Below are positions 5,905-27,186 of a stretch of DNA of 51,241 nucleotides, one piece after another. The number at the start of each line of letters is the position of its first letter. Within the stretch, counting starts at the first letter, position 1. The stretch comes from a virus (taxonomy: Duplodnaviria; Caudoviricetes), in the IMG/VR virus record IMGVR_UViG_3300037483_000317, positions 1 to 51,241 of that record; one strand, given 5' to 3'. A program made the position numbers and the translations under genes. The notes under the pieces are model-generated. The model ran no database searches and had not been told where the DNA came from. It saw nothing but the letters and a program-made list of their open reading frames with translations.

Positions 5905-6240
5905 CTACAAAAAGTGAACTGCGGCTTGAATCGCTCCCAAAAATAATGTGATCGCTAAAATCCACGTCATGGTTGCCTTCTGTGCTTCCGCTTGCCTTGT
6001 TTCTACCTCGGCGACTTTTGCTGCTAACGCATCGTGTAGCTCGCGGCTCGCAGACAGACCACGCTCACTATTGATTTGCGCCCGCATCTCATTCATTTCC
6101 GCCAGTCGGCGGTCGACGTTTTCCGCCGCAACTTTGATTTGCGAACGAAGCATTTTGTGTTCGCGCAAATGCGATTTTAGGTAATCCTCGAACCGCTCTG
6201 TCGTAACTGGCCGCTGCCTGTTCATCCCGGCCACCCTCAC
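5905..6240 (-). CDS. Coiled-coil protein with C-terminal TM helix (holin/XhlA-like)
   Basis: 111 aa; heptad-rich body ending in WILAITLFLGAIQAAVHFL. Confidence 0.5.
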   Translation of the reverse strand: MRVAGMNRQRPVTTERFEDYLKSHLREHKMLRSQIKVAAENVDRRLAEMNEMRAQINSERGLSASRELHDALAAKVAEVETRQAEAQKATMTWILAITLFLGAIQAAVHFL

Positions 6241-6252
6241 TACCGCAGTTCA

Positions 6253-6465
6253 CTATTTTCCATGCGATTTCCAAAATGCGTCAATCTGGTACTTCGCATT
6301 CTCTTTGGCGTCGGTTTGTGTCGCTCCAATCGACCTGATCTTCTCCAGTGCCACCCCTGCATTTTCCGGTCGAGCCTCGCAGACCCAAGGCGTCGTCGGG
6401 CTTCCGCTGCTGCGGTCGGTCTGTAGCTCGAATGATCTGTAGGTTTCGTTCATGTCACGCCGCAA
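6253..6465 (-). CDS. Hypothetical protein
   Basis: 70-aa ORF packed between neighbours in the operon. Confidence 0.5.
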   Translation of the reverse strand: MRRDMNETYRSFELQTDRSSGSPTTPWVCEARPENAGVALEKIRSIGATQTDAKENAKYQIDAFWKSHGK

Positions 6466-12047: not shown

Positions 12048-12258
12048 GGTCAGAGTGTCGGGAACGGAATCGCTCGGGCCAGTTCTTTCTCCTCGTTGCT
12101 GAGCTGGCGCCACACGTGGTCGATCGTCCGCTGCCACAGCCGCGGGTCGATTTTGCGATTGGTGATCGCGGCGATCATCCGGCAGTACAGGCTGTATGGG
12201 TCCATGCTGTTGCTCCCAAACATTCTGCGGCGTACTGCCCCATGAGCCCAGCGATCAG

Positions 12259-12331
12259 TGGTGCCGGCTGGCTTCGATCCAGCGTCTCGGGGTTATGGGC
12301 CCCGCGGGATACCTGGCTTCCCCACGGCACT
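12259..12331 (-). tRNA. tRNA-Met(CAT), initiator-type
   Basis: 73-nt cloverleaf: acceptor AGTGCCG/CGGCACC plus A73, D stem GGGA/TCCC, anticodon stem CGGGG-CCCATAA-CCCCG, T stem GCTGG-ATCGAAG-CCAGC. CCA not encoded. Confidence 0.88.
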
Positions 12332-19112: not shown

Positions 19113-20711
19113 CTAAACTCCTTTCACCGCAGCCATGAACTGATCGAGCACCGACTCGGTCCCGTCGAACAACGGCCTGGGTTCTACATTCGCGGGCTTC
19201 TTCTTCGGAGGAAACAACTTCGCCGCTGGCAGATACCAATCCGAAGGGCGGCTCGGCATGAACGGCCAATCCGGGCTCGGCATCTGTCCCTGGTTCTCAC
19301 GCTGAAACAAGGAACGGGCCTGGTTCATCGTCCGTTTCGCGTTCCGGCAACGGCAAACCACCGTCACCCATTTGTCTTTGAGCGTGGGATCCTCGGCCAC
19401 GCGACGCGGTCGGAAGATGTCGCCGCGGACCTCATGCAACCGACCGTTGGTTTCGATCACCATCCGCGTGCGGCCCTTGTAGGCATAGCCACACCCCGGG
19501 CAGACCACGCCGCGATAGCGGACCTTCGAACATTTTGGGCAGACGATTGGCTCGGGCTTCGTCTTGCCTCGAAATTCCTCGAAGTGTTCATCCTGGTACT
19601 GACGGTCGGACTTGCCGAGCGACCAGACGCGATCGCAGTTGAGCGAGTCGAACCGCCAGAAGTTGCCCCCATGATCTTGGATCGTGACCTCGGAAAGTTG
19701 TGGCACACCGTCGACGTTGTATTGCCCGAGCACCCGGCCTCCGGCTTGCAGGTACGCCTTGACCGTTCCGAACGTGCAGAGAAACATGCAATGCGACAGC
19801 CACGAAAACGTGACGCCTTCGCGGAGCACAAATCGGTTAAAGACGACCGTGACGTCCCCATTCTTCGAAGCGGCGCGGAGCGCGTCGCGCCCCTTCTTGT
19901 TCGTATTGAGCGTCCTCCCGTTGAGCCAAATCCGGTTGCTGTCGATGTGCGCCGACGGGATGCCTGCCGACGAATACCGCTGGGCGTACCACAGGCTGTC
20001 CGCCACGCCAGGCGGGAAGGCGATTGTCGGTCGGCTTGTCGGATTGAGTCGCCGAAAATGCTCGATCGACCGACCGCAGATCACCTCCATCATCGTCTCT
20101 TTGACTTCCTTGCGGAGCTCGATGATCGCGGCCCGCTGTTTCTTGAACGCCTTGAGCGTCGGCTCGTCAGGGGCGTAGGTTTGGGCCGGCACGATGGCGC
20201 CGCAGGACCGCAGGTCGCTATTGCGGCCGGCGACCACCATCCGCGTCGCCATGTGATTGATGCCGATCGGCGTCGCCGTGACCAGCACGACGATCGCACC
20301 ACGAGCGATGTACTCGTCGACGATCTGTACCGCTCGCGGCCCGGTTTCGTTGTGGGCCTCGTCGACGATCACCAGCTGGGCCGGTGGCAACTCCATCTGC
20401 CCGGCCTTCCACCGCTTGTGGAGTGTCTGGATTGAGGCGACCTGCACCCGGGCCAGCACGTCGGGCGCGTAGCCGCTCGCCACGAGCCCCGCTTTCAAGT
20501 CGGCGACCTCGGTGTCTTCAAACAACTGATCGATGAGAATCTTCTTGTTGGCGATCAGCAGCGAATCGAAGCCCCACTGGCACATCTTGAGCATCATCCA
20601 AGATTTGCCGCCCCGGGTCGGGCTGGTGAGCACGATCCTCCGCTCGCCCAGTTCAATCAGGCGGTGGACGTCGGCGACGCCAGAGACTTGATGGGGCCAG
20701 GGGCTATGCAC
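19113..20711 (-). CDS. Superfamily 2 DNA helicase with C-terminal zinc finger
   Basis: WPHQ, SPTRGGKS (Walker A), DEAH, TATP, QAGGRVL, CPKC...CPGC. Confidence 0.9.
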   Translation of the reverse strand: MHSPWPHQVSGVADVHRLIELGERRIVLTSPTRGGKSWMMLKMCQWGFDSLLIANKKILIDQLFEDTEVADLKAGLVASGYAPDVLARVQVASIQTLHKRWKAGQMELPPAQLVIVDEAHNETGPRAVQIVDEYIARGAIVVLVTATPIGINHMATRMVVAGRNSDLRSCGAIVPAQTYAPDEPTLKAFKKQRAAIIELRKEVKETMMEVICGRSIEHFRRLNPTSRPTIAFPPGVADSLWYAQRYSSAGIPSAHIDSNRIWLNGRTLNTNKKGRDALRAASKNGDVTVVFNRFVLREGVTFSWLSHCMFLCTFGTVKAYLQAGGRVLGQYNVDGVPQLSEVTIQDHGGNFWRFDSLNCDRVWSLGKSDRQYQDEHFEEFRGKTKPEPIVCPKCSKVRYRGVVCPGCGYAYKGRTRMVIETNGRLHEVRGDIFRPRRVAEDPTLKDKWVTVVCRCRNAKRTMNQARSLFQRENQGQMPSPDWPFMPSRPSDWYLPAAKLFPPKKKPANVEPRPLFDGTESVLDQFMAAVKGV

Positions 20712-21441
20712 GCTGGACGTCCTCCGTGATGGCGGACAAGGCCGCACTGTGCTTCTCGTAGAGGCCCAGCAACTCGAGCGACCGGATCAGGCCGCCCAAA
20801 TGTTTCTGGGCCGTCACCCGGTCCTGCCGGCTGATCACCGGCTTGCCGTTGCGGCGGACGGTTTGCGCTTCGAGCTCGACCGGGTCAAAGTCGACGGGCT
20901 CGTCGTCGAGGGGCGGCTCCGCGACCTCGCTATTTCCCGAGGGTTGCGCTGTCGATTGTTCCACCGTGGAACAATCACTATCCTTTTGGGGGGTCGGCTG
21001 TTCGCGTTTTGGCGTGTACGAGTCGACGATCTCTTTTGCCCGTTGGGCGGTGATTCTGATGCCCTTCGAAGCGAGCTTGCTGGCCTCGATCGCGGCGGCT
21101 TCTGGCACCGATGGCGCCGAGAGAGCGTACATGGCCGTGTCGTCAAACTGCCCGAGTGCGTCGCATTTTTGGAAGCGACCCCAGGCTGCCATGTAGCGGT
21201 GGGCCGTTGTGCGACCGATTCCGCATTCGAGCTCGACCCACTCGCCGAACCGACCGTACTTGCCGTGTTCGGACAGCAGGTCGTTCGCCGTCTGGATCGC
21301 TTCGCCCATCATCATGGCGGCCTTGATGTGCTGGCCCTTGGCGGAGTTGATCTCGCCCATCAGGCAAATCAGCTTGCTCTTCAGCTCGCCGTCGAAGCCT
21401 GCGTAATCGAATGTCTTAGTTGCCAGCAGTTTGCGTGACAT
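20704..21441 (-). CDS. DUF3102-like DNA-binding protein
   Basis: MGEAI...HGKYGRFGEWVELECGIGRTTAHRYM. Confidence 0.7.
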   Translation of the reverse strand: MSRKLLATKTFDYAGFDGELKSKLICLMGEINSAKGQHIKAAMMMGEAIQTANDLLSEHGKYGRFGEWVELECGIGRTTAHRYMAAWGRFQKCDALGQFDDTAMYALSAPSVPEAAAIEASKLASKGIRITAQRAKEIVDSYTPKREQPTPQKDSDCSTVEQSTAQPSGNSEVAEPPLDDEPVDFDPVELEAQTVRRNGKPVISRQDRVTAQKHLGGLIRSLELLGLYEKHSAALSAITEDVQRA

Positions 21442-22330
21442 GGGACTCCGTTCCTTGTGGTGGTTCGGCGTTCATTTCCGACGAGCGTTTGATCTCGCCC
21501 ACGATCAGCGTTGCGCAAAAATCACTTTTCCCGTCGATCTTTTTGGCAACGATGATGCGTCGTAGCCGATTCGCAAAGTGAGTCATCACCGGCGGCCAGT
21601 CGACGGTCGAGTTGTAGAGTGGGGCGTTGTTTTGCAGCGCCGTGAAGGCCCTTTCCCACGCCTCGACGTTTTCCGGTAGCGCGTCGATCCACCGCATGAT
21701 CGTGGGCGGCTCGGACCTGTCGGGCCAGCCGACCGGAAGCGAGAGACCAGCCGAGACGTTGGCAGCAGGCGGCTTAGACTGGCTAGCCGGTGCCGACTGC
21801 TGGCGCCCTGCCCCACGCTGCTGCGATCGTCCACCACGCGGCACCTGCACCGCGGCGTTACCATCCGCCGCGTTCGCATCGTCATCATCTTCTGACGTCA
21901 ACCCGAGGATCGCTGCGTAGCCGTATCGCCGGCGGAAGGTGAGCATCCCACCAAGATCCTGATTGGTGGTCCGATCGGTGGCCGGAATAAAGTCGATCGC
22001 CTCGAAGTAGGCTCCGCTGGTGTGGCCGAGAATTGTTCGCAGCAGCCAGCCGCCGCGAGTCGAGTGGTACGGCTGGCAAATGCAGAGGCCGTTGGCCGAG
22101 AGTGATTCGCGCGTCGCGGCGACAAGGTTTTCGAGCGGCGCATAGCTGAATTCGTATTCCGCTTTCGATTGATCTTTTGGTCGCACTCGCACCGTCTTGC
22201 TGCGCTCGATCTCCTTGAAGGTGGGAGCCGCCTTCGCCAACGCGGCGAATACCTCGGCCGCTGCGCCAACGATCCGAAACCGTAAATCATCCGCTGCAAC
22301 TGTCGCTACCGAACCATTCGTCTCATCCAT
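21416..22330 (-). CDS. ERF-family single-strand annealing protein
   Basis: FSYAPLENL...LSANGL...Q...TILGHTSG...QDLGGMLTFRRRYGYAAILGL..EDDDD. True start is ATG 22330 after a GGAAGGA RBS, downstream of the array. Confidence 0.85.
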   Translation of the reverse strand: MDETNGSVATVAADDLRFRIVGAAAEVFAALAKAAPTFKEIERSKTVRVRPKDQSKAEYEFSYAPLENLVAATRESLSANGLCICQPYHSTRGGWLLRTILGHTSGAYFEAIDFIPATDRTTNQDLGGMLTFRRRYGYAAILGLTSEDDDDANAADGNAAVQVPRGGRSQQRGAGRQQSAPASQSKPPAANVSAGLSLPVGWPDRSEPPTIMRWIDALPENVEAWERAFTALQNNAPLYNSTVDWPPVMTHFANRLRRIIVAKKIDGKSDFCATLIVGEIKRSSEMNAEPPQGTESHVTQTAGN

Positions 22331-22346
22331 GCGTCGTTCCTTCCCC

Positions 22347-22579
22347 CCTGCGCTAACACCCAGTTTCGCTGTCTCGTTCACCGCACCACCATCTCGCCGT
22401 ATAGCTGACGCACCTGCGCTAACACCCCGTTTCGCTGTCTCGTTCACCTGCCTGTAGTTCGAGTTTTCCAACTTCGCACCTGCGCTAACACCCCGTTTCG
22501 CTGTCTCGTTCACCGGATTGGCCGACATAGCTTGGAGACTCCGCCTGCGCTAACACCCCGTTTCGCTGTCTCGTTCACC
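22347..22579 (-). CRISPR. Mini CRISPR array: 4 x 36-nt repeats, 3 spacers (29, 30, 30 nt)
   Basis: Minus-strand repeat GGTGAACGAGACAGCGAAACGGGGTGTTAGCGCAGG at 22544-22579, 22479-22514, 22413-22448 and 22347-22382 (last copy has one substitution). Spacers are unrelated to each other. Confidence 0.9.
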
Positions 22580-23847
22580 CTCGTCGGCTGTAACGCCGTA
22601 CTTGGCACGGCCTTGCGGCCAATCTTGCCGCCGCAAAACGCTCGCAATTCAATCTTGACGTTCAACCGCTGCGCACTTTGCTGCAAAAACTGCTCGAGCT
22701 GATACCACGGCCAGCCGGTCGAATCCTCGCGGTCTGGAACCTTGCCAGCTGTCGCTAGTAGCCGGTCCTCGTGCCCGCCAATTAAAACCACCTTGCCGAC
22801 ACCCTGGTCGCAGCACAATTGCAGCACGTCCGCAATCAATAGCCGATTGCATCCGCTCGCAAAGTTGTTCCACGCCGACTGGAGTTTGAACACCGGCAGC
22901 AGTCCGCGATCTCTCCCTCGCCCCTTGCGCTTCGGTGAATACGTGTAACCGTGCTGCCGACTCCATCGCTGCAAAAGATTCGTCTTGCGTTTGTGGGCGA
23001 CGTGGTGCCCGCGTCCGCCTAGCCGCCATGTTCGGCCAGCGACTCGTAGCGTCCAACAGTTCCTAGACCCGGGCCGCAAGACAGCGATCTTCCCGGCGTC
23101 CAATTCGATCGCCTCGCGTTCCACTTCGTAACTCAGCGCAACAAACCATTTTCGTTTCTTCGCGTCATACGTCAGTTTCGCACCCGCCAGCTTGCGGTCG
23201 CCCGACGCCATCTGCACAGCCGGTTGTGCGTAAGCGGCACGCTTACCGCCCGTTTTCAACGCGGCGCGAATCAGCGTGGACGTTCCAGTTTTCTTTCCCG
23301 GCCGTTCGATTCGATTCAGCCGTGCCTCAAACCATACGCGCCCTTTTTCATCGGCCGGAAGAACCTTGGCATTGGCCGAATCAAACGGAATCGGCTGCGG
23401 GTAACGCGAGCCGCCACGCGAATCGAGGTCAAGCAGAATAGCAATCCACCATTTCGTTGCCGCTGCGCTCGACTGCTTCGTGGTCACGGTCTGGCGCATC
23501 TGATTCAGCAGCAGCACCAGCACCCGCGAATTGAGCCCTGGAAAGCGGGTAGTGATTTTGTGGTAAAGTTCGTTCGCGAGTTCTTTCGGCCACGGCTGCA
23601 CGGTCCATTTCGGTCGCCCGCCGCGAGTTGCCTTGTCGCTTTGATGCCACGCTTTGTCGGCCGCGAGGCAGTGTCTCAATGAGGTGGATGTGTCGCGTGT
23701 CGTGTGCCAGCATTCCCACTGCCGCCAAATGAAGTTGGCCGCTTCTCGTAGCTGCGAGGAAAGATCGTACATCAGCTTTCGGTGTTCGCTCGATAGCTCC
23801 ACGACCTCCAGCTTGCAGCAGCGGGTGATGGAATCTGTTTTTTTCAT
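22510..23847 (-). CDS. Cas12f/TnpB-like RNA-guided protein, predicted nuclease-dead
   Basis: 445 aa. KWFVALSY strand, KGRGRDR bridge-helix region and GWPWYQLEQFLQQSAQRLNVKI match the Cas12f/TnpB layout. RuvC-I reads AVLRPG, RuvC-II reads VVLIGG, and the Zn finger and RuvC-III are absent. Confidence 0.8.
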   Translation of the reverse strand: MKKTDSITRCCKLEVVELSSEHRKLMYDLSSQLREAANFIWRQWECWHTTRDTSTSLRHCLAADKAWHQSDKATRGGRPKWTVQPWPKELANELYHKITTRFPGLNSRVLVLLLNQMRQTVTTKQSSAAATKWWIAILLDLDSRGGSRYPQPIPFDSANAKVLPADEKGRVWFEARLNRIERPGKKTGTSTLIRAALKTGGKRAAYAQPAVQMASGDRKLAGAKLTYDAKKRKWFVALSYEVEREAIELDAGKIAVLRPGSRNCWTLRVAGRTWRLGGRGHHVAHKRKTNLLQRWSRQHGYTYSPKRKGRGRDRGLLPVFKLQSAWNNFASGCNRLLIADVLQLCCDQGVGKVVLIGGHEDRLLATAGKVPDREDSTGWPWYQLEQFLQQSAQRLNVKIELRAFCGGKIGRKAVPSTALQPTRVNETAKRGVSAGGVSKLCRPIR

Positions 23848-23854
23848 GTTGATT

Positions 23855-23936
23855 TAAGGCGGCCGGCGGCGGGTGAGGCCGCCGGCCTAAGCGAAACGAA
23901 GCATCAGTTGGCGAGCGCTTCAGCCCTTGGTCGCCC
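23855..23936 (-). ncRNA. Putative tracrRNA (anti-repeat plus GC hairpin)
   Basis: Minus-strand CTGATGCTTCGTTTCGCT (23907-23890) pairs over 18 nt (13 WC + 5 G-U) with repeat nt 13-30, followed by a 10-bp hairpin at 23861-23887. RNA ends are uncertain. Confidence 0.65.
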
Positions 23937-24125
23937 CTACGGGCAGTGATGGCCAGCTCTTCTCGCCACTGGGCGCCGCAGTGCGCCCTCACCGAACTGG
24001 CGGTGTACGTTACTTATCTCCTTCAACCGCATCGTGCGGCGGCCTCGATCTCCGTCCTCGATTTGTAAAACCGCCGTCCCGTCCGTTGTTGTGGCCAGCG
24101 GGACGACGGACATTGGCCGCGACAA
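23937..24125 (-). CDS. Small hypothetical protein
   Basis: 62 aa between the repeat protein and the cas locus. Confidence 0.45.
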   Translation of the reverse strand: MSRPMSVVPLATTTDGTAVLQIEDGDRGRRTMRLKEISNVHRQFGEGALRRPVARRAGHHCP

Positions 24126-24129
24126 GCGG

Positions 24130-25227
24130 CTAGTGTGCTAGGCCCACTCTCGTCGGTATTAGATCAACAACGGCTGGCTCCGCTGGACGCTCGTACTTAG
24201 CGCCGATGACCTTGCCAGCAACATCGCACTCGTAATGGTTCCAACACGCACGCGCCTTCACTTTGTTTGGGTGATCGCCGTTAGGATGCACGGCGATGTC
24301 TGCGAGTGAGACGAGGCAGGCAACGTACTTTGTCGCGCCGCCATTGAATTCCAGCGTGGCGGCCGGCGTCGGTGAAAAATGGAGTCCGCCGCCACACTCT
24401 GTTATGCCACCATCCCAGTCGCCTGCCAACGACTCGGTGCCCGGCGCATAGACAGTGCCGTGAGGCGACAAAAAATCTTCGTCGACGCCCTTGAACAGCA
24501 GCGCGTAGCTACCGACGACTTCCACACCGTAGTAGTCACACCATTCGCCAGAAGTCACCGGCGCTACAATTGTTATTTGGTGCCCACCGTCGCACGTCGC
24601 CCCGCGGTGTAGTTGTACGGCGACCATTGCGGCTGCCTTCGCAGACACGCTCGCACCAAAAAGAGCAAGCGAAGCGGCGGCCGACGCCACGACGTGCGAG
24701 CTTTCCCACGCCTCGACGTGCGAGCTTCCCCGCGCCTCGACGTGCGAGCTTTCCCACGCCTCGACGTGCGAGCTATCCCGCGCCTCGACGTGCGAGCTTC
24801 CCCGCGCCTCGACGTGCGAGCTATCCCGCGCCTCGACGTGCGAGCTATCCCGCGCCTCGACGTGCGAGCTTTCCCGCGCCTCGACGTGCGAGCTATCCCG
24901 CGCCTCGACGTGCGAGCTTTCCCACGCCTCGACGTGCGAGCTTTCCCGCGCCTCGACGTGCGAGCTATCCCGCGCCTCGACGTGCGAGCTATCCCGCGCC
25001 TCGACGTGCGAGCTTTCCCACGCTACGACGTGCGAGCTTTCCCGCGCCTCGACGTGCGAGCTTCCCCTCGCCCTAAAGAATCCGCCTGTGATGGCCTTCA
25101 CTACGAGCCGCACCGCCGACGAAATGCAAACGTCGATCGTTATCGCGGCTTCGAGGCTGATGCGGTCACTGCCCGCGGCGATGGCCGCATCAAACTCTGC
25201 CTGCGACTTTACGATGGTCCAGTCCAT
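24130..25227 (-). CDS. Octapeptide-repeat phage protein with conserved C-terminal domain
   Basis: 16 x A[R/W][D/E/G]SSHV[E/V]; C-terminal FKGV...ECGGGLHF...KVKA domain. Confidence 0.8.
   Translation of the reverse strand: MDWTIVKSQAEFDAAIAAGSDRISLEAAITIDVCISSAVRLVVKAITGGFFRARGSSHVEARESSHVVAWESSHVEARDSSHVEARDSSHVEARESSHVEAWESSHVEARDSSHVEARESSHVEARDSSHVEARDSSHVEARGSSHVEARDSSHVEAWESSHVEARGSSHVEAWESSHVVASAAASLALFGASVSAKAAAMVAVQLHRGATCDGGHQITIVAPVTSGEWCDYYGVEVVGSYALLFKGVDEDFLSPHGTVYAPGTESLAGDWDGGITECGGGLHFSPTPAATLEFNGGATKYVACLVSLADIAVHPNGDHPNKVKARACWNHYECDVAGKVIGAKYERPAEPAVVDLIPTRVGLAH
24688..25071. repeat. 24-nt tandem repeat, 16 copies
   Basis: Unit approximately CTCGACGTGCGAGCTWTCCCRCGC. Confidence 0.95.
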
Positions 25228-25425: not shown

Positions 25426-25644
25426 TCAATCTGTAGGGGGTCGACCGGGATCGCGACGCTCCCTGTTGTAGCGGTCGATTTCCGCTTGAGAAATAAGCCA
25501 GTCGCGGCCACCCTTGACGGCTTGAAGCCGCGGCGGGTCGGAGTTGCAATACGTGCGCACCGTGTCTGGGTCGAGGTCGAGCAATTCGGCGGCCTCCCTG
25601 CACGTATACATCTTCCCCTTGAGTTGGATTGACACGGTGCTCAT
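25426..25644 (-). CDS. Excisionase-like / HTH_17 DNA-binding protein
   Basis: MYTCREAAELLDLDPDTVRTYC...LQAVKGGRDWLISQAEIDRY. Confidence 0.8.
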   Translation of the reverse strand: MSTVSIQLKGKMYTCREAAELLDLDPDTVRTYCNSDPPRLQAVKGGRDWLISQAEIDRYNRERRDPGRPPTD

Positions 25645-25650
25645 GCTCCT

Positions 25651-25679
25651 AATATATTCGCAAACGAAAGTAAATGCAA
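25651..25679 (-). promoter_or_regulatory. Promoter of the HTH gene with TTCG-N4-CGAA operator
   Basis: TTGCAT-17 nt-TATATT, 6 nt before the ATG; TTCGCAAACGAA at 25657-25668. Confidence 0.65.
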
Positions 25680-25831
25680 GCGGCAGGCGATATCGCGGCA
25701 AACGCCGGCAAAGCCGAACCGCCCCAAAGCCTTGCGGACAATGGGACACCTGCCGCTTGCGTTTGTTGGTCCTTTCTCGAGGTTGATGGTTTACTTACTT
25801 GCATTGGTAACGCTATTCGACTTTGGGATTT

Positions 25832-26080: not shown

Positions 26081-26280
26081 GGGAATTTCTTTTCTGGAAA
26101 ATTTGACACGGCCAATTTGCGCAATTAGGGTTGAGTGAGCCGACAATCGGCGGACTGGCCGTAGTTCTCAGCGGAGAGGACTTCTTTCGACTTTTGGATA
26201 TGCCGGATGTACCGGCGACGCACGGCTGCGCTGTGCATGGACGTGAGCTAGGGTTTAGATACACCCCCAACGTCCAAGCA

Positions 26281-27186
26281 ATGCCTCAACACAAACTTCT
26301 ATTTGCTCTCTACGAAGGGCAATACGAGCCAATCAAGATTCGTTCGCGGCGTCCAAACACGAAGCGTCTCTACCGCGCTACACTCAAGGAATTTGCGTTG
26401 TTCCTTACGCGACCACCAACGCTCGCGGACTTGAACGACGCGACGGTCTCAAGGTTTGCCGCCCATCGACTCAACGGAGGATTGGCAAAGCGCACCATCA
26501 ACAAAGACCTATTCAACCTGCTCGCGCTCTGGCGATGGCTCCACACCAAAGGCTACGTCACGAACTGGCCAGCCGTGGAAATGGAAACGCCACCGGTGCG
26601 TGTGCCGATTGCACTCTTGCGAGACGAGATCGACCGGATGATGGAGGCGATCGACGCCGAGCGGTTGCCGGTCGGCAGCATTTCGCCGCCACTCTTCTGG
26701 CGCGCGCTGATGCTCGTCATTTGGGATACTGGCGAGCGGATCGGCGCATTGATGGCGCTCACGTGGGACCAGGTCGATCTCGACGGCGGCTGGGTGCGGT
26801 TTGTCGCCGAGACCCGCAAGGGTGCGATGGAAGATAACCTGCTGCCGATCGCAGCCGACACCCGCGATGCGCTCCGCAAGATTCGGCCACGCTCAGCCGT
26901 GGGAAGCGATCTGGTATACCGCTGGCCCTACTCGGCGACGTACATCTATCGGCGGCTGGGAAGGATCATGCGGCAGGCCGGACTGCCGGACAATCGGCAA
27001 TACAAATTTCACGTCGTGCGGAAGAGCGTGGCCAGCCACTACGAGGCGGCCGGCGGAAACGCGACCGACCTACTCAAGCACAGCAGCCGGAAGGTGACGA
27101 TGAGTTATCTTGATCCGCGGATTGTGAAGCCGGTGGCGCCGGTGGATCTGCTGTTTCGGCCTGGATCAGCCGTCCCGAGCCAGTAA
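26281..27186 (+). CDS. int: Tyrosine integrase/recombinase
   Basis: DTGERIGALMAL (R), FHVVRKS (HxxR), LKHSS (H), SYLD (Y). ORF open from 26131. Confidence 0.9.
   Translation: MPQHKLLFALYEGQYEPIKIRSRRPNTKRLYRATLKEFALFLTRPPTLADLNDATVSRFAAHRLNGGLAKRTINKDLFNLLALWRWLHTKGYVTNWPAVEMETPPVRVPIALLRDEIDRMMEAIDAERLPVGSISPPLFWRALMLVIWDTGERIGALMALTWDQVDLDGGWVRFVAETRKGAMEDNLLPIAADTRDALRKIRPRSAVGSDLVYRWPYSATYIYRRLGRIMRQAGLPDNRQYKFHVVRKSVASHYEAAGGNATDLLKHSSRKVTMSYLDPRIVKPVAPVDLLFRPGSAVPSQ

Follow-up and report, generated by a model that had tools for sequence, protein, structure and literature searches.

Introduction

The type V-F1 effector AsCas12f (Cas12f1; PDB 8j12, 7wju, 8dzj) is an active nuclease of 422 amino acids (aa) with a D-E-D triad and a Zn-ribbon/RuvC-III end, and it is accompanied by a CRISPR (clustered, regularly interspaced, short palindromic repeat) array and a separate trans-activating CRISPR RNA (tracrRNA) with a 3' anti-repeat. 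Nuclease-dead relatives (dCas12f) are also on record. The sigma-E-linked dCas12f of Bacteroidota chromosomes (Hoffmann et al. 2026, PMC13472631; PDB 9n9c) measures about 365 aa, has lost part of RuvC through a C-terminal truncation, is encoded together with rpoE and helix-turn-helix genes and activates transcription with a single chimeric guide, without a tracrRNA or an array. In this study we describe a locus of a different composition on the complete IMG/VR virus record IMGVR_UViG_3300037483_000317 (51,241 nucleotides, referred to below in its full length as the window). The locus, found on a temperate tailed phage, forms a self-contained CRISPR unit of type V-F descent that spans about 1.65 kb and is arranged on the minus strand in the order tracrRNA candidate, dCas12f, three-spacer array.

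AsCas12f is the top relative of the phage effector by both profile and fold, and the two are similar in size (422 aa against about 405 folded residues) and in the presence of an array together with a separate tracrRNA whose anti-repeat lies 3'; they differ in that the phage protein carries R258 and I356 at triad positions and lacks the C-terminal end, that its tracrRNA candidate lies upstream of the gene, and that the carrier is a phage. The sigma-E-linked dCas12f shares nuclease death and C-terminal truncation with our protein, whereas the guide arrangement here consists of an array and a separate upstream RNA. Nor was its operon with an ECF (extracytoplasmic function) sigma factor bearing a C-terminal extension found, a sigma factor gene being absent from the window and present in one of 16 records (the window and 15 related IMG/VR contigs). 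The same report mentions in passing a 'distinct cluster' of array-linked dCas12f, which we can compare by its description only. Likewise by description, we set apart CasMu-V (Altae-Tran et al. 2023, PMC10910872), another array-associated type V effector without RuvC-III on phage-like elements, since it is defined by MuA/MuB and a homing spacer while the window phage has a tyrosine integrase.

Three further systems resemble the locus in biology more than in ancestry. Cas12m (type V-M) is the best functional analogue: it is compact, binds DNA and blocks transcription without cutting double-stranded DNA, and serves on plasmids and in some prophages in the conflict of mobile elements, but it belongs to a separate branch, has a length of about 600 aa, retains a RuvC site in altered form and uses CRISPR RNA (crRNA) only. 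TldR proteins are dead, RNA-guided DNA-binding repressors of the TnpB family encoded by temperate phages; unlike the present system they are TnpB-derived, use a single omega-RNA-like guide against fixed host targets and have neither array nor tracrRNA. Cas12r of the Thermus Lalka phages (10.64898/2026.04.20.719267) is a phage-encoded, adaptation-less type V system with spacers against mobile elements, yet it is an active RuvC nuclease of 564 aa without a tracrRNA in the published description. The initial annotation of the window had recognised no named precedent for this combination of features; that was too strong, as CasMu-V, the sigma-E-linked dCas12f and the array-linked dCas12f cluster are already in print. 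In the main texts of the literature we found no phage-borne dCas12f with a tracrRNA that lacks both a Mu transposase and a sigma factor. The family may overlap with clades listed in the supplementary tables of PMC10691335 or in Extended Data Fig. 1a of PMC13472631.

Results

The effector gene occupies positions 22510..23847 on the minus strand, starts with ATG and encodes a nuclease-dead, C-terminally truncated Cas12f homologue of 445 residues. Sequence and fold both identify the protein as a Cas12f homologue, with AsCas12f as its nearest solved relative. PADLOC, the sole family library to name it, gave Cas12u3 at 4.3e-14 and Cas12f at 4.7e-13, and Pfam, NCBIfam and PHROGs gave no match. A phmmer search of the PDB with the single sequence retrieved AsCas12f chains at 3.6e-7 and 9n9c ('nuclease-deactivated Cas12f') at 3e-3, and a profile of 109 family representatives retrieved AsCas12f at 2.5e-39 (138 bits), SpCas12f1 at 9.9e-34, OsCas12f at 3e-31 and 9n9c (Fta dCas12f) at 1.3e-18 (70 bits). 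An AlphaFold2 model from a 26-sequence alignment reached a mean predicted local distance difference test (pLDDT) score of 86.7; its folded part comprises residues 1 to about 405, while residues 406-445 (pLDDT <50) are predicted to be disordered, and 23 of the 26 other homologues found are 412-427 aa long. When this model was compared with the PDB by Foldseek, listed ranks 1-22 were all Cas12f or dCas12f chains, the best being 8j12_A (1.4e-21), with 9n9c_A at 2.5e-17 and a TM-score of 0.62 by target. TnpB appeared first at rank 23, and Cas12k and Cas12m only from there on (Cas12m at rank 27, 8.6e-9, TM-score 0.31 by query; PADLOC gave no Cas12m match). The Cas12f/TnpB-like architecture noted at the outset is thus confirmed by PADLOC, the PDB profile and Foldseek, with Cas12f rather than TnpB nearest, and the structural comparison with Cas12f1, TnpB, Cas12k and Cas12m proposed with it uncovered the expected likeness, Cas12f coming first.

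The segment AVLRPG lies at residues 255-260, VVLIGG at 353-358, WPWYQL at 379-384 and NVKI at 396-399, followed by 46 residues. When the family profile is aligned to wild-type AsCas12f (8j12), R258 takes the place of the Asp in G-I-D-L-G and I356 that of the Glu in M-E-D, and the alignment stops at the last beta strand, ahead of the Zn-ribbon and RuvC-III. The initial annotation had read AVLRPG and VVLIGG as replaced acidic RuvC positions and had placed the stop about 45 aa after the WPWYQL..NVKI segment without Zn finger or RuvC-III; both observations hold. Across the 109 representatives, the eight commonest residues in column 258 (R, S, V, W, L, H, Y and F; 90/109) include no acidic one, and column 356 holds L, V, F, Y, I or W in 78/109 and E in 7/109. 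Beyond the last strand the tails have a median length of 18 aa and reach at most 73, CxxC occurs in none of the 109 tails, and the Pfam TNB domain is missing from the window protein. A separate gene for the Zn-ribbon/RuvC-III part was not detected over cut-off in the record, where the sole PF07282 signal (13 bits at 6212-6337) is 16 kb away. The D-E-D triad and the Zn-ribbon are both missing from the sequence, and on this basis the usual RuvC nuclease activity is ruled out for the 445-aa protein.

This state extends well beyond the window. An exhaustive profile search returned 1039, 487 and 237 representatives at E <= 1e-3, 1e-10 and 1e-30; these are cluster representatives at 50% identity, so that the family comprises at least 237 clusters. 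Of the nearest two ESM Atlas clusters, one with 58 members is 75% viral and one with 95 members 78% viral, and the next structural neighbours there are the 365-aa Bacteroidota clusters. As judged from these alignments, nuclease loss and truncation are the fixed state of a large, mostly viral and little-described family. This bears directly on whether the locus could be what is left of a once active Cas12f locus, now decaying and without function, as a truncated protein, a short array and a gene whose stop codon falls within that array might suggest. We disfavour this explanation and think it very unlikely, because the truncated and substituted state is kept in 109/109 representatives at 23-39% identity to the window protein, because the fold is predicted with high confidence, and because the associated RNA described below shows compensatory changes.

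The array (22347..22579, minus strand) consists of four 36-nt repeats, starting on the plus strand at 22347, 22413, 22479 and 22544, and of three spacers of 30, 30 and 29 nt, which agrees with the 36-nt-repeat, three-spacer array overlapping the gene that had been reported from the letters of the sequence. The repeats at 22413, 22479 and 22544 are identical, and the far repeat (22347-22382) has one substitution. The dCas12f reading frame crosses the 22544-22579 repeat and the spacer after it, so that the disordered tail overlaps the array and the stop codon lies inside it. The array would be transcribed together with the dCas12f gene. At its other end, the far repeat abuts the ribosome-binding site and ATG of erf (22313-22346); the array transcript would therefore enter erf, and a fourth 'guide' formed on this final repeat would bear erf 5' sequence. 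The window repeat is homologous to those of the relatives, with 5' GGTG.A... and 3' ...GGTG....CAGG in common.

Upstream of the gene lies a conserved structured RNA resembling a tracrRNA (23848..23986, minus strand). It is built from a two-part stem, GGCGAG...CUCGCC around GCU...AGC, with a variable inner helix, followed by an anti-repeat (23890..23907, minus strand) with 18 contiguous pairs, five of them G-U, to repeat positions 13-30, and by a strong terminal hairpin (23861..23887, minus strand; minimum free energy (MFE) fold) between the anti-repeat and the ATG. As an exact match the anti-repeat amounts to only 9 nt, which is at chance level (E = 4), and the upstream region did not stand out when RNAduplex was run on 50-nt windows, since long interior loops inflate scores in G+C-rich DNA. 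We therefore replaced both tests by a search for contiguous helices with G-U pairs and by a comparative model. With G-U pairs allowed, the uninterrupted 18-bp helix, 43 nt before the ATG, outranks every other helix on either strand of 10 kb once the array is masked, scoring 19.0 against 14.0 and 13.5 for the next candidates.

For ten loci the same helix test was run on the 150 nt that lie upstream of the gene; two more loci were dropped because their gene sat at the locus edge. Rank p values were 0.003 for the window and 0.015, 0.002, 0.011, 0.024, 0.079, 0.11, 0.16, 0.93 and 1.0 for the others, and the Fisher combined p was 3e-6, to be taken as a guide value only because the loci are related; repeat positions ~19-31 were always involved. 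The upstream regions share the sequence GAAGGYGAGAAYAGCUG...GCCGUGUAGCNCUCRCC, then the anti-repeat, then a hairpin and U-run or a U-run alone. RNAalifold on six well-aligned regions predicted 13 pairs, five with compensatory changes. A covariance model (R1) built from these regions scored the window RNA at 73.1 bits (E = 2.5e-17) and made 18 matches at E <= 2.4e-10 in 13 of the 16 sources, all on the gene strand; those beyond the loci used to build it comprise L007/L008, L012/L013, four copies in L016 and three in L017, and the sources without a match (L001, L002, L018) have the gene or array at a contig edge. In the R1 alignment, 99% of cells are paired, against 34-52% with slid partners, and six of the 13 pairs are altered on both sides, values reached in 0/500 shuffles, although an alignment fitted to the model favours structure.

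The strongest argument that the upstream RNA is a tracrRNA comes from covariation between two molecules. In 13 of 15 R1 matches, the best helix with the local repeat begins right after the closing stem and involves the same part of the repeat, and the anti-repeat tracks the local repeat from locus to locus, with AGUCACCU facing AGGUGACU and ACUUGCCUUU facing AAAGGCAAGU. Rfam gave only two sub-threshold matches, both unrelated. We thus regard the upstream RNA as a tracrRNA candidate with comparative support, which bears out the anti-repeat and tracrRNA proposed from a first inspection: chance-level as an exact match, they are supported by the G-U-tolerant 18-bp helix and its covariation. The covariation also speaks to the idea of a decoy or anti-CRISPR, in which the dead effector and tracrRNA would soak up type V crRNAs or the tracrRNA of the host. 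A precedent exists in the proposal made for a phage Cas9 with a dead RuvC domain (PMC10910872). Here, however, the array that the phage itself carries has unique spacers, the anti-repeat changes in step with the repeat of the same phage across loci, and repeats co-evolve with the effector protein across the family, all of which make a decoy highly improbable.

Further upstream, a GC-rich hairpin followed by UUUU (24067..24109, minus strand; MFE fold of 23848-24129) sits just past the stop of the preceding gene (24130). A consensus terminator scan made no call there, but the hairpin probably ends the upstream transcript, in which case the CRISPR unit would form its own transcription unit.

In IMG/VR scans, relatives were encoded on 15 distinct contigs ranging from fragments to complete records of 129 kb and 364 kb, and all 15 carry arrays of 3 to 24 repeats within ~1 kb of the gene. 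The association suggested at the outset as a check is therefore conserved in viral contigs, with the array kept in 15/15 and the tracrRNA-like RNA in 13 of 16 sources. A scan of metagenome contigs found no relatives, and a match in a Bradyrhizobium metagenome-assembled genome (L005, genome-contig scan) was dismissed as weak: it spanned 70 residues, and the other 108 representatives were unmatched. L016 (364-kb record) and L017 (122-kb record) each have two tandem dCas12f paralogues, several separate mini-arrays and three or four tracrRNA-like copies, some directly before an array. L012 (7287-7378, 8040-8217) has very short arrays with spacers of ~18-20 nt and a repeat spacing of 54-57. Some spacers occur twice in one array in L003 (7260-8300) and L006 (7220-7530), which points to segmental duplication within arrays rather than acquisition.

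A second gene accompanies the array in most relatives. Eleven of the 12 relative loci encode, beside the array, a conserved protein of 162-205 aa whose N-terminal domain is helical and whose C-terminal part is a coiled coil or leucine zipper (L002:1878-2429, L003:8393-8881, L004:8174-8719, L006:7621-8160, L007:8317-8925, L011:7362-7880, L012:7529-8035, L015:2309-2881, L016:9396-9929, L017:9753-10280 and L018:1673-2290). It matches no Pfam family over cut-off, and these relatives may use it as a third component of the system.

The spacers offer hints as to what is targeted. Eleven soil and sediment sequencing runs contain at least half of the locus, and contigs of four of them were compared with it. 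Spacer 2 (22449..22478, minus strand) has an exact 30/30 protospacer, without differences, on a 219-nt contig (depth 2.5) from sediment run X9, which also holds the phage; the chance expectation of such a 30-mer match in the sequence searched is ~6e-5. Both flanks on this contig are unlike the window, and they are not copies of one repeat, so the match does not lie in another array. The four bases preceding it on the crRNA-like strand are CCTC. Each strand of the stretch has one open frame, so the match does not tell which strand of a gene would be targeted. The second hint comes from the related locus L011 (record G008), whose spacer 7 matches the tape-measure gene of its own record at 30/35 positions, with all five mismatches at third codon positions; the simplest reading is that this spacer derives from the orthologous tape-measure gene of a related phage.

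Other searches were less productive. The window spacers showed no match above chance to the window itself, the arrays of the window, L011, L004 and L007 had no significant match in GenBank phages, exact seeds of window spacers 1, 2 and 3 had no match in IMG/VR, and the spacer 2 seed had none in JGI metagenome contigs. Comparison of 101 inter-repeat segments from 12 loci with eight whole records gave one extended match outside arrays, and five other short segment matches collapsed on extension. A 26-mer of L011 spacer 7 occurs in three IMG/VR contigs, but all three are arrays and not targets. Among the sequencing runs, short matches at the 85% level (23012-23046 and 23500-23536) were treated as unrelated DNA, and nothing was read into the parts of the gene over which X9 and X10 contigs have no cover.

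Taken with the protein and the RNA, these hints make it reasonably probable in our view that the unit is an RNA-guided DNA binder acting in conflict between mobile elements, where binding, silencing and expression are what we infer from sequence. The main competitor, which we hold to be rather unlikely but well ahead of the other alternatives, is a regulator of lysogenic conversion: the complex of dCas12f, tracrRNA and crRNA would bind the host chromosome and repress or tune host genes for the lysogen. Precedents exist in TldR proteins, which are temperate-phage-encoded repressors of host genes such as flagellin (PMC13418256, 10.1101/2023.11.30.569447), and in array-linked dCas12f guides that are sometimes predicted to target efflux promoters (PMC13472631). 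The moron-like setting, with the unit adjoining the int/xis region behind a terminator-like hairpin, also favours regulation, and a spacer 2 match of unassigned origin is compatible with it. Set against this, the sole identifiable target in the family is a phage structural gene, relatives' arrays reach 13-24 repeats with unique spacers and resemble a fixed regulon less than a record of conflict, and the flanks of the spacer 2 match are ~13 points lower in G+C than the phage.

The surroundings of the unit are those of a phage genome. The window, a record with linear ends and a CheckV completeness of 100, encodes a large terminase, portal, tail protein and protease, together with a tyrosine integrase (26131-27186, plus strand) 2.3 kb from the dCas12f gene and an HTH_17/excisionase-like gene (25426-25749, minus strand). 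The phage is temperate and tailed, as had been supposed. On the minus strand, the excisionase-like gene is followed by the gene for a phrog_15773 protein to which no function is assigned (24130-25227, the first gene upstream of the CRISPR unit), a gap of 282 nt between its stop and the dCas12f ATG, the dCas12f gene, the repeats, an Erf-type annealing protein (21416-22330), a 245-aa protein and a helicase (19113-20747). The phrog_15773 gene contains ~20 tandem heptads, SSHVEAR/W, which create long open frames on both strands, and a tRNA-Met (CAT) gene lies at 12258-12331 on the minus strand. Neither Cas1, Cas2 or Cas4 nor a Y1 transposase, rve or DDE_2 was found in the whole 51,241-nt record, which agrees with the reported absence of cas1/cas2/cas4 and of a transposase; Sigma70_r2 was absent from the window as well.

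Across the 16 records, Cas1 was found in none; rve over cut-off was found in none either, with one 13.4-bit match in G014. Phage_integrase occurs in two of the 16 (two of the three complete ones), and Sigma70_r2 in G003 only, a complete 129-kb record in which a sigma-70 family gene lies ~3 kb upstream of dCas12f (L003:2321-2929; G003:79269-79478). These counts weigh on RNA-guided mobility, in which the dead effector would mark a site for the element's own recombinase, be it the tyrosine integrase or a transposition enzyme as in Cas12k CRISPR-associated transposons and CasMu-V. The idea has precedents in CasMu-V itself, a Cas12 without RuvC-III that combines MuA/MuB linkage with a homing spacer (PMC10910872), and in inactivated TnpB proteins, which have become linked to phage-type tyrosine recombinases at least three times (PMC10691335), and the window integrase is indeed close by. 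Mobility nevertheless appears improbable: rve over cut-off is missing from all 16 records, as is DDE_2 (a weak blank, since the control genomes were silent too), the linkage to an integrase is not conserved, three distinct spacers exceed the needs of homing, and the stretch matched by spacer 2 is open in two frames, which, as inferred from its flanks, is unlike a tRNA-type attachment site.

Discussion

We propose the following course of events for a conflict device. The unit would be transcribed separately, behind the hairpin at 24067-24109, and its tracrRNA would pair with the array transcript at repeat positions 13-30, after which a host RNase would cut the duplex. The dual RNA would then be loaded on dCas12f, probably as a dimer as in Cas12f, and the complex would open R-loops on matching DNA beside a protospacer-adjacent motif and stay bound without cutting, blocking RNA polymerase or replication of the target element. 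Targets would be other mobile elements, for example related or competing phages, so that the unit would serve as a guided exclusion or competition device like Cas12m and type IV-A. That binding without cutting can suffice is known from Cas12m, which achieves interference in this way (PMC10442227, PMC11013384, PMC12669027), and from the exclusion of plasmids and phages by Cas12m and type IV-A (PMC12669027, PMC11656645). The initial annotation had suggested a multiplexed, early-expressed repressor used against competing phages or host genes. The notion of targets has since gained indirect support from the 30/30 match of spacer 2 and the tape-measure match in L011, while repression and early expression stay at the level of proposals.

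A number of observations weigh against our interpretation. With regard to the loss of cutting, E360, four residues past the RuvC-II position, lies in a column with D or E in 55/109 representatives, and D375 is invariant across the 26-sequence alignment, so that the protein might still have a non-canonical activity. With regard to targets, the flanks of the X9 contig have ~46% G+C against 59.6% in the phage, and host, plasmid or phage DNA are all possible sources; the L011 relative is only ~30% identical to the window protein; and spacers 1 and 3 remain unmatched in GenBank phages or, as exact seeds, in IMG/VR. Three runs have contigs over the array (X1 and X2, and X9 in part), and it is invariant among them, which gives no sign of continuing spacer uptake. 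Expression, processing and ends of the tracrRNA are predicted from sequence alone, none of the runs that hold the locus being recorded as RNA. Finally, the coiled-coil gene of 11 of the 12 relatives has no counterpart anywhere in the window, so either the relatives may work differently or the window unit may be incomplete.

A more speculative view, which we consider a long shot, takes the neighbouring recombination genes as its starting point. Nuclease loss would then be ancestral and universal in an almost purely viral V-F branch, and the R-loop would double as an entry point for recombination in a form of natural RNA-guided recombineering. It would feed the same-strand Erf and helicase module, in an arrangement (dCas12f, array, Erf, helicase) that L007/L008 share with the window, with the coiled-coil protein of 11 of the 12 relatives as a partner, and the guides would direct recombination with, or gene capture from, related phages.

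If the interpretation as a conflict device is correct, the implications reach beyond a single phage. A small RNA-guided binder of this kind, naturally dead and working with two RNAs, could be of use in gene-regulation tools, and the coiled-coil gene of the relatives would be a possible third component that has so far escaped description. From an evolutionary perspective, the family would document the stage with array and tracrRNA that current schemes place between active Cas12f and sigma-linked dCas12f. Many tailed phages of soil and sediment, including one of 364 kb, would carry a device of about 1.65 kb akin to CRISPR interference, composed of a non-cutting binder of about 405 folded residues, a helper RNA of ~85-140 nt and a short array. 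Interference by binding only would thereby extend from plasmids, where it is represented by Cas12m and type IV systems, to the conflict of phage against phage.

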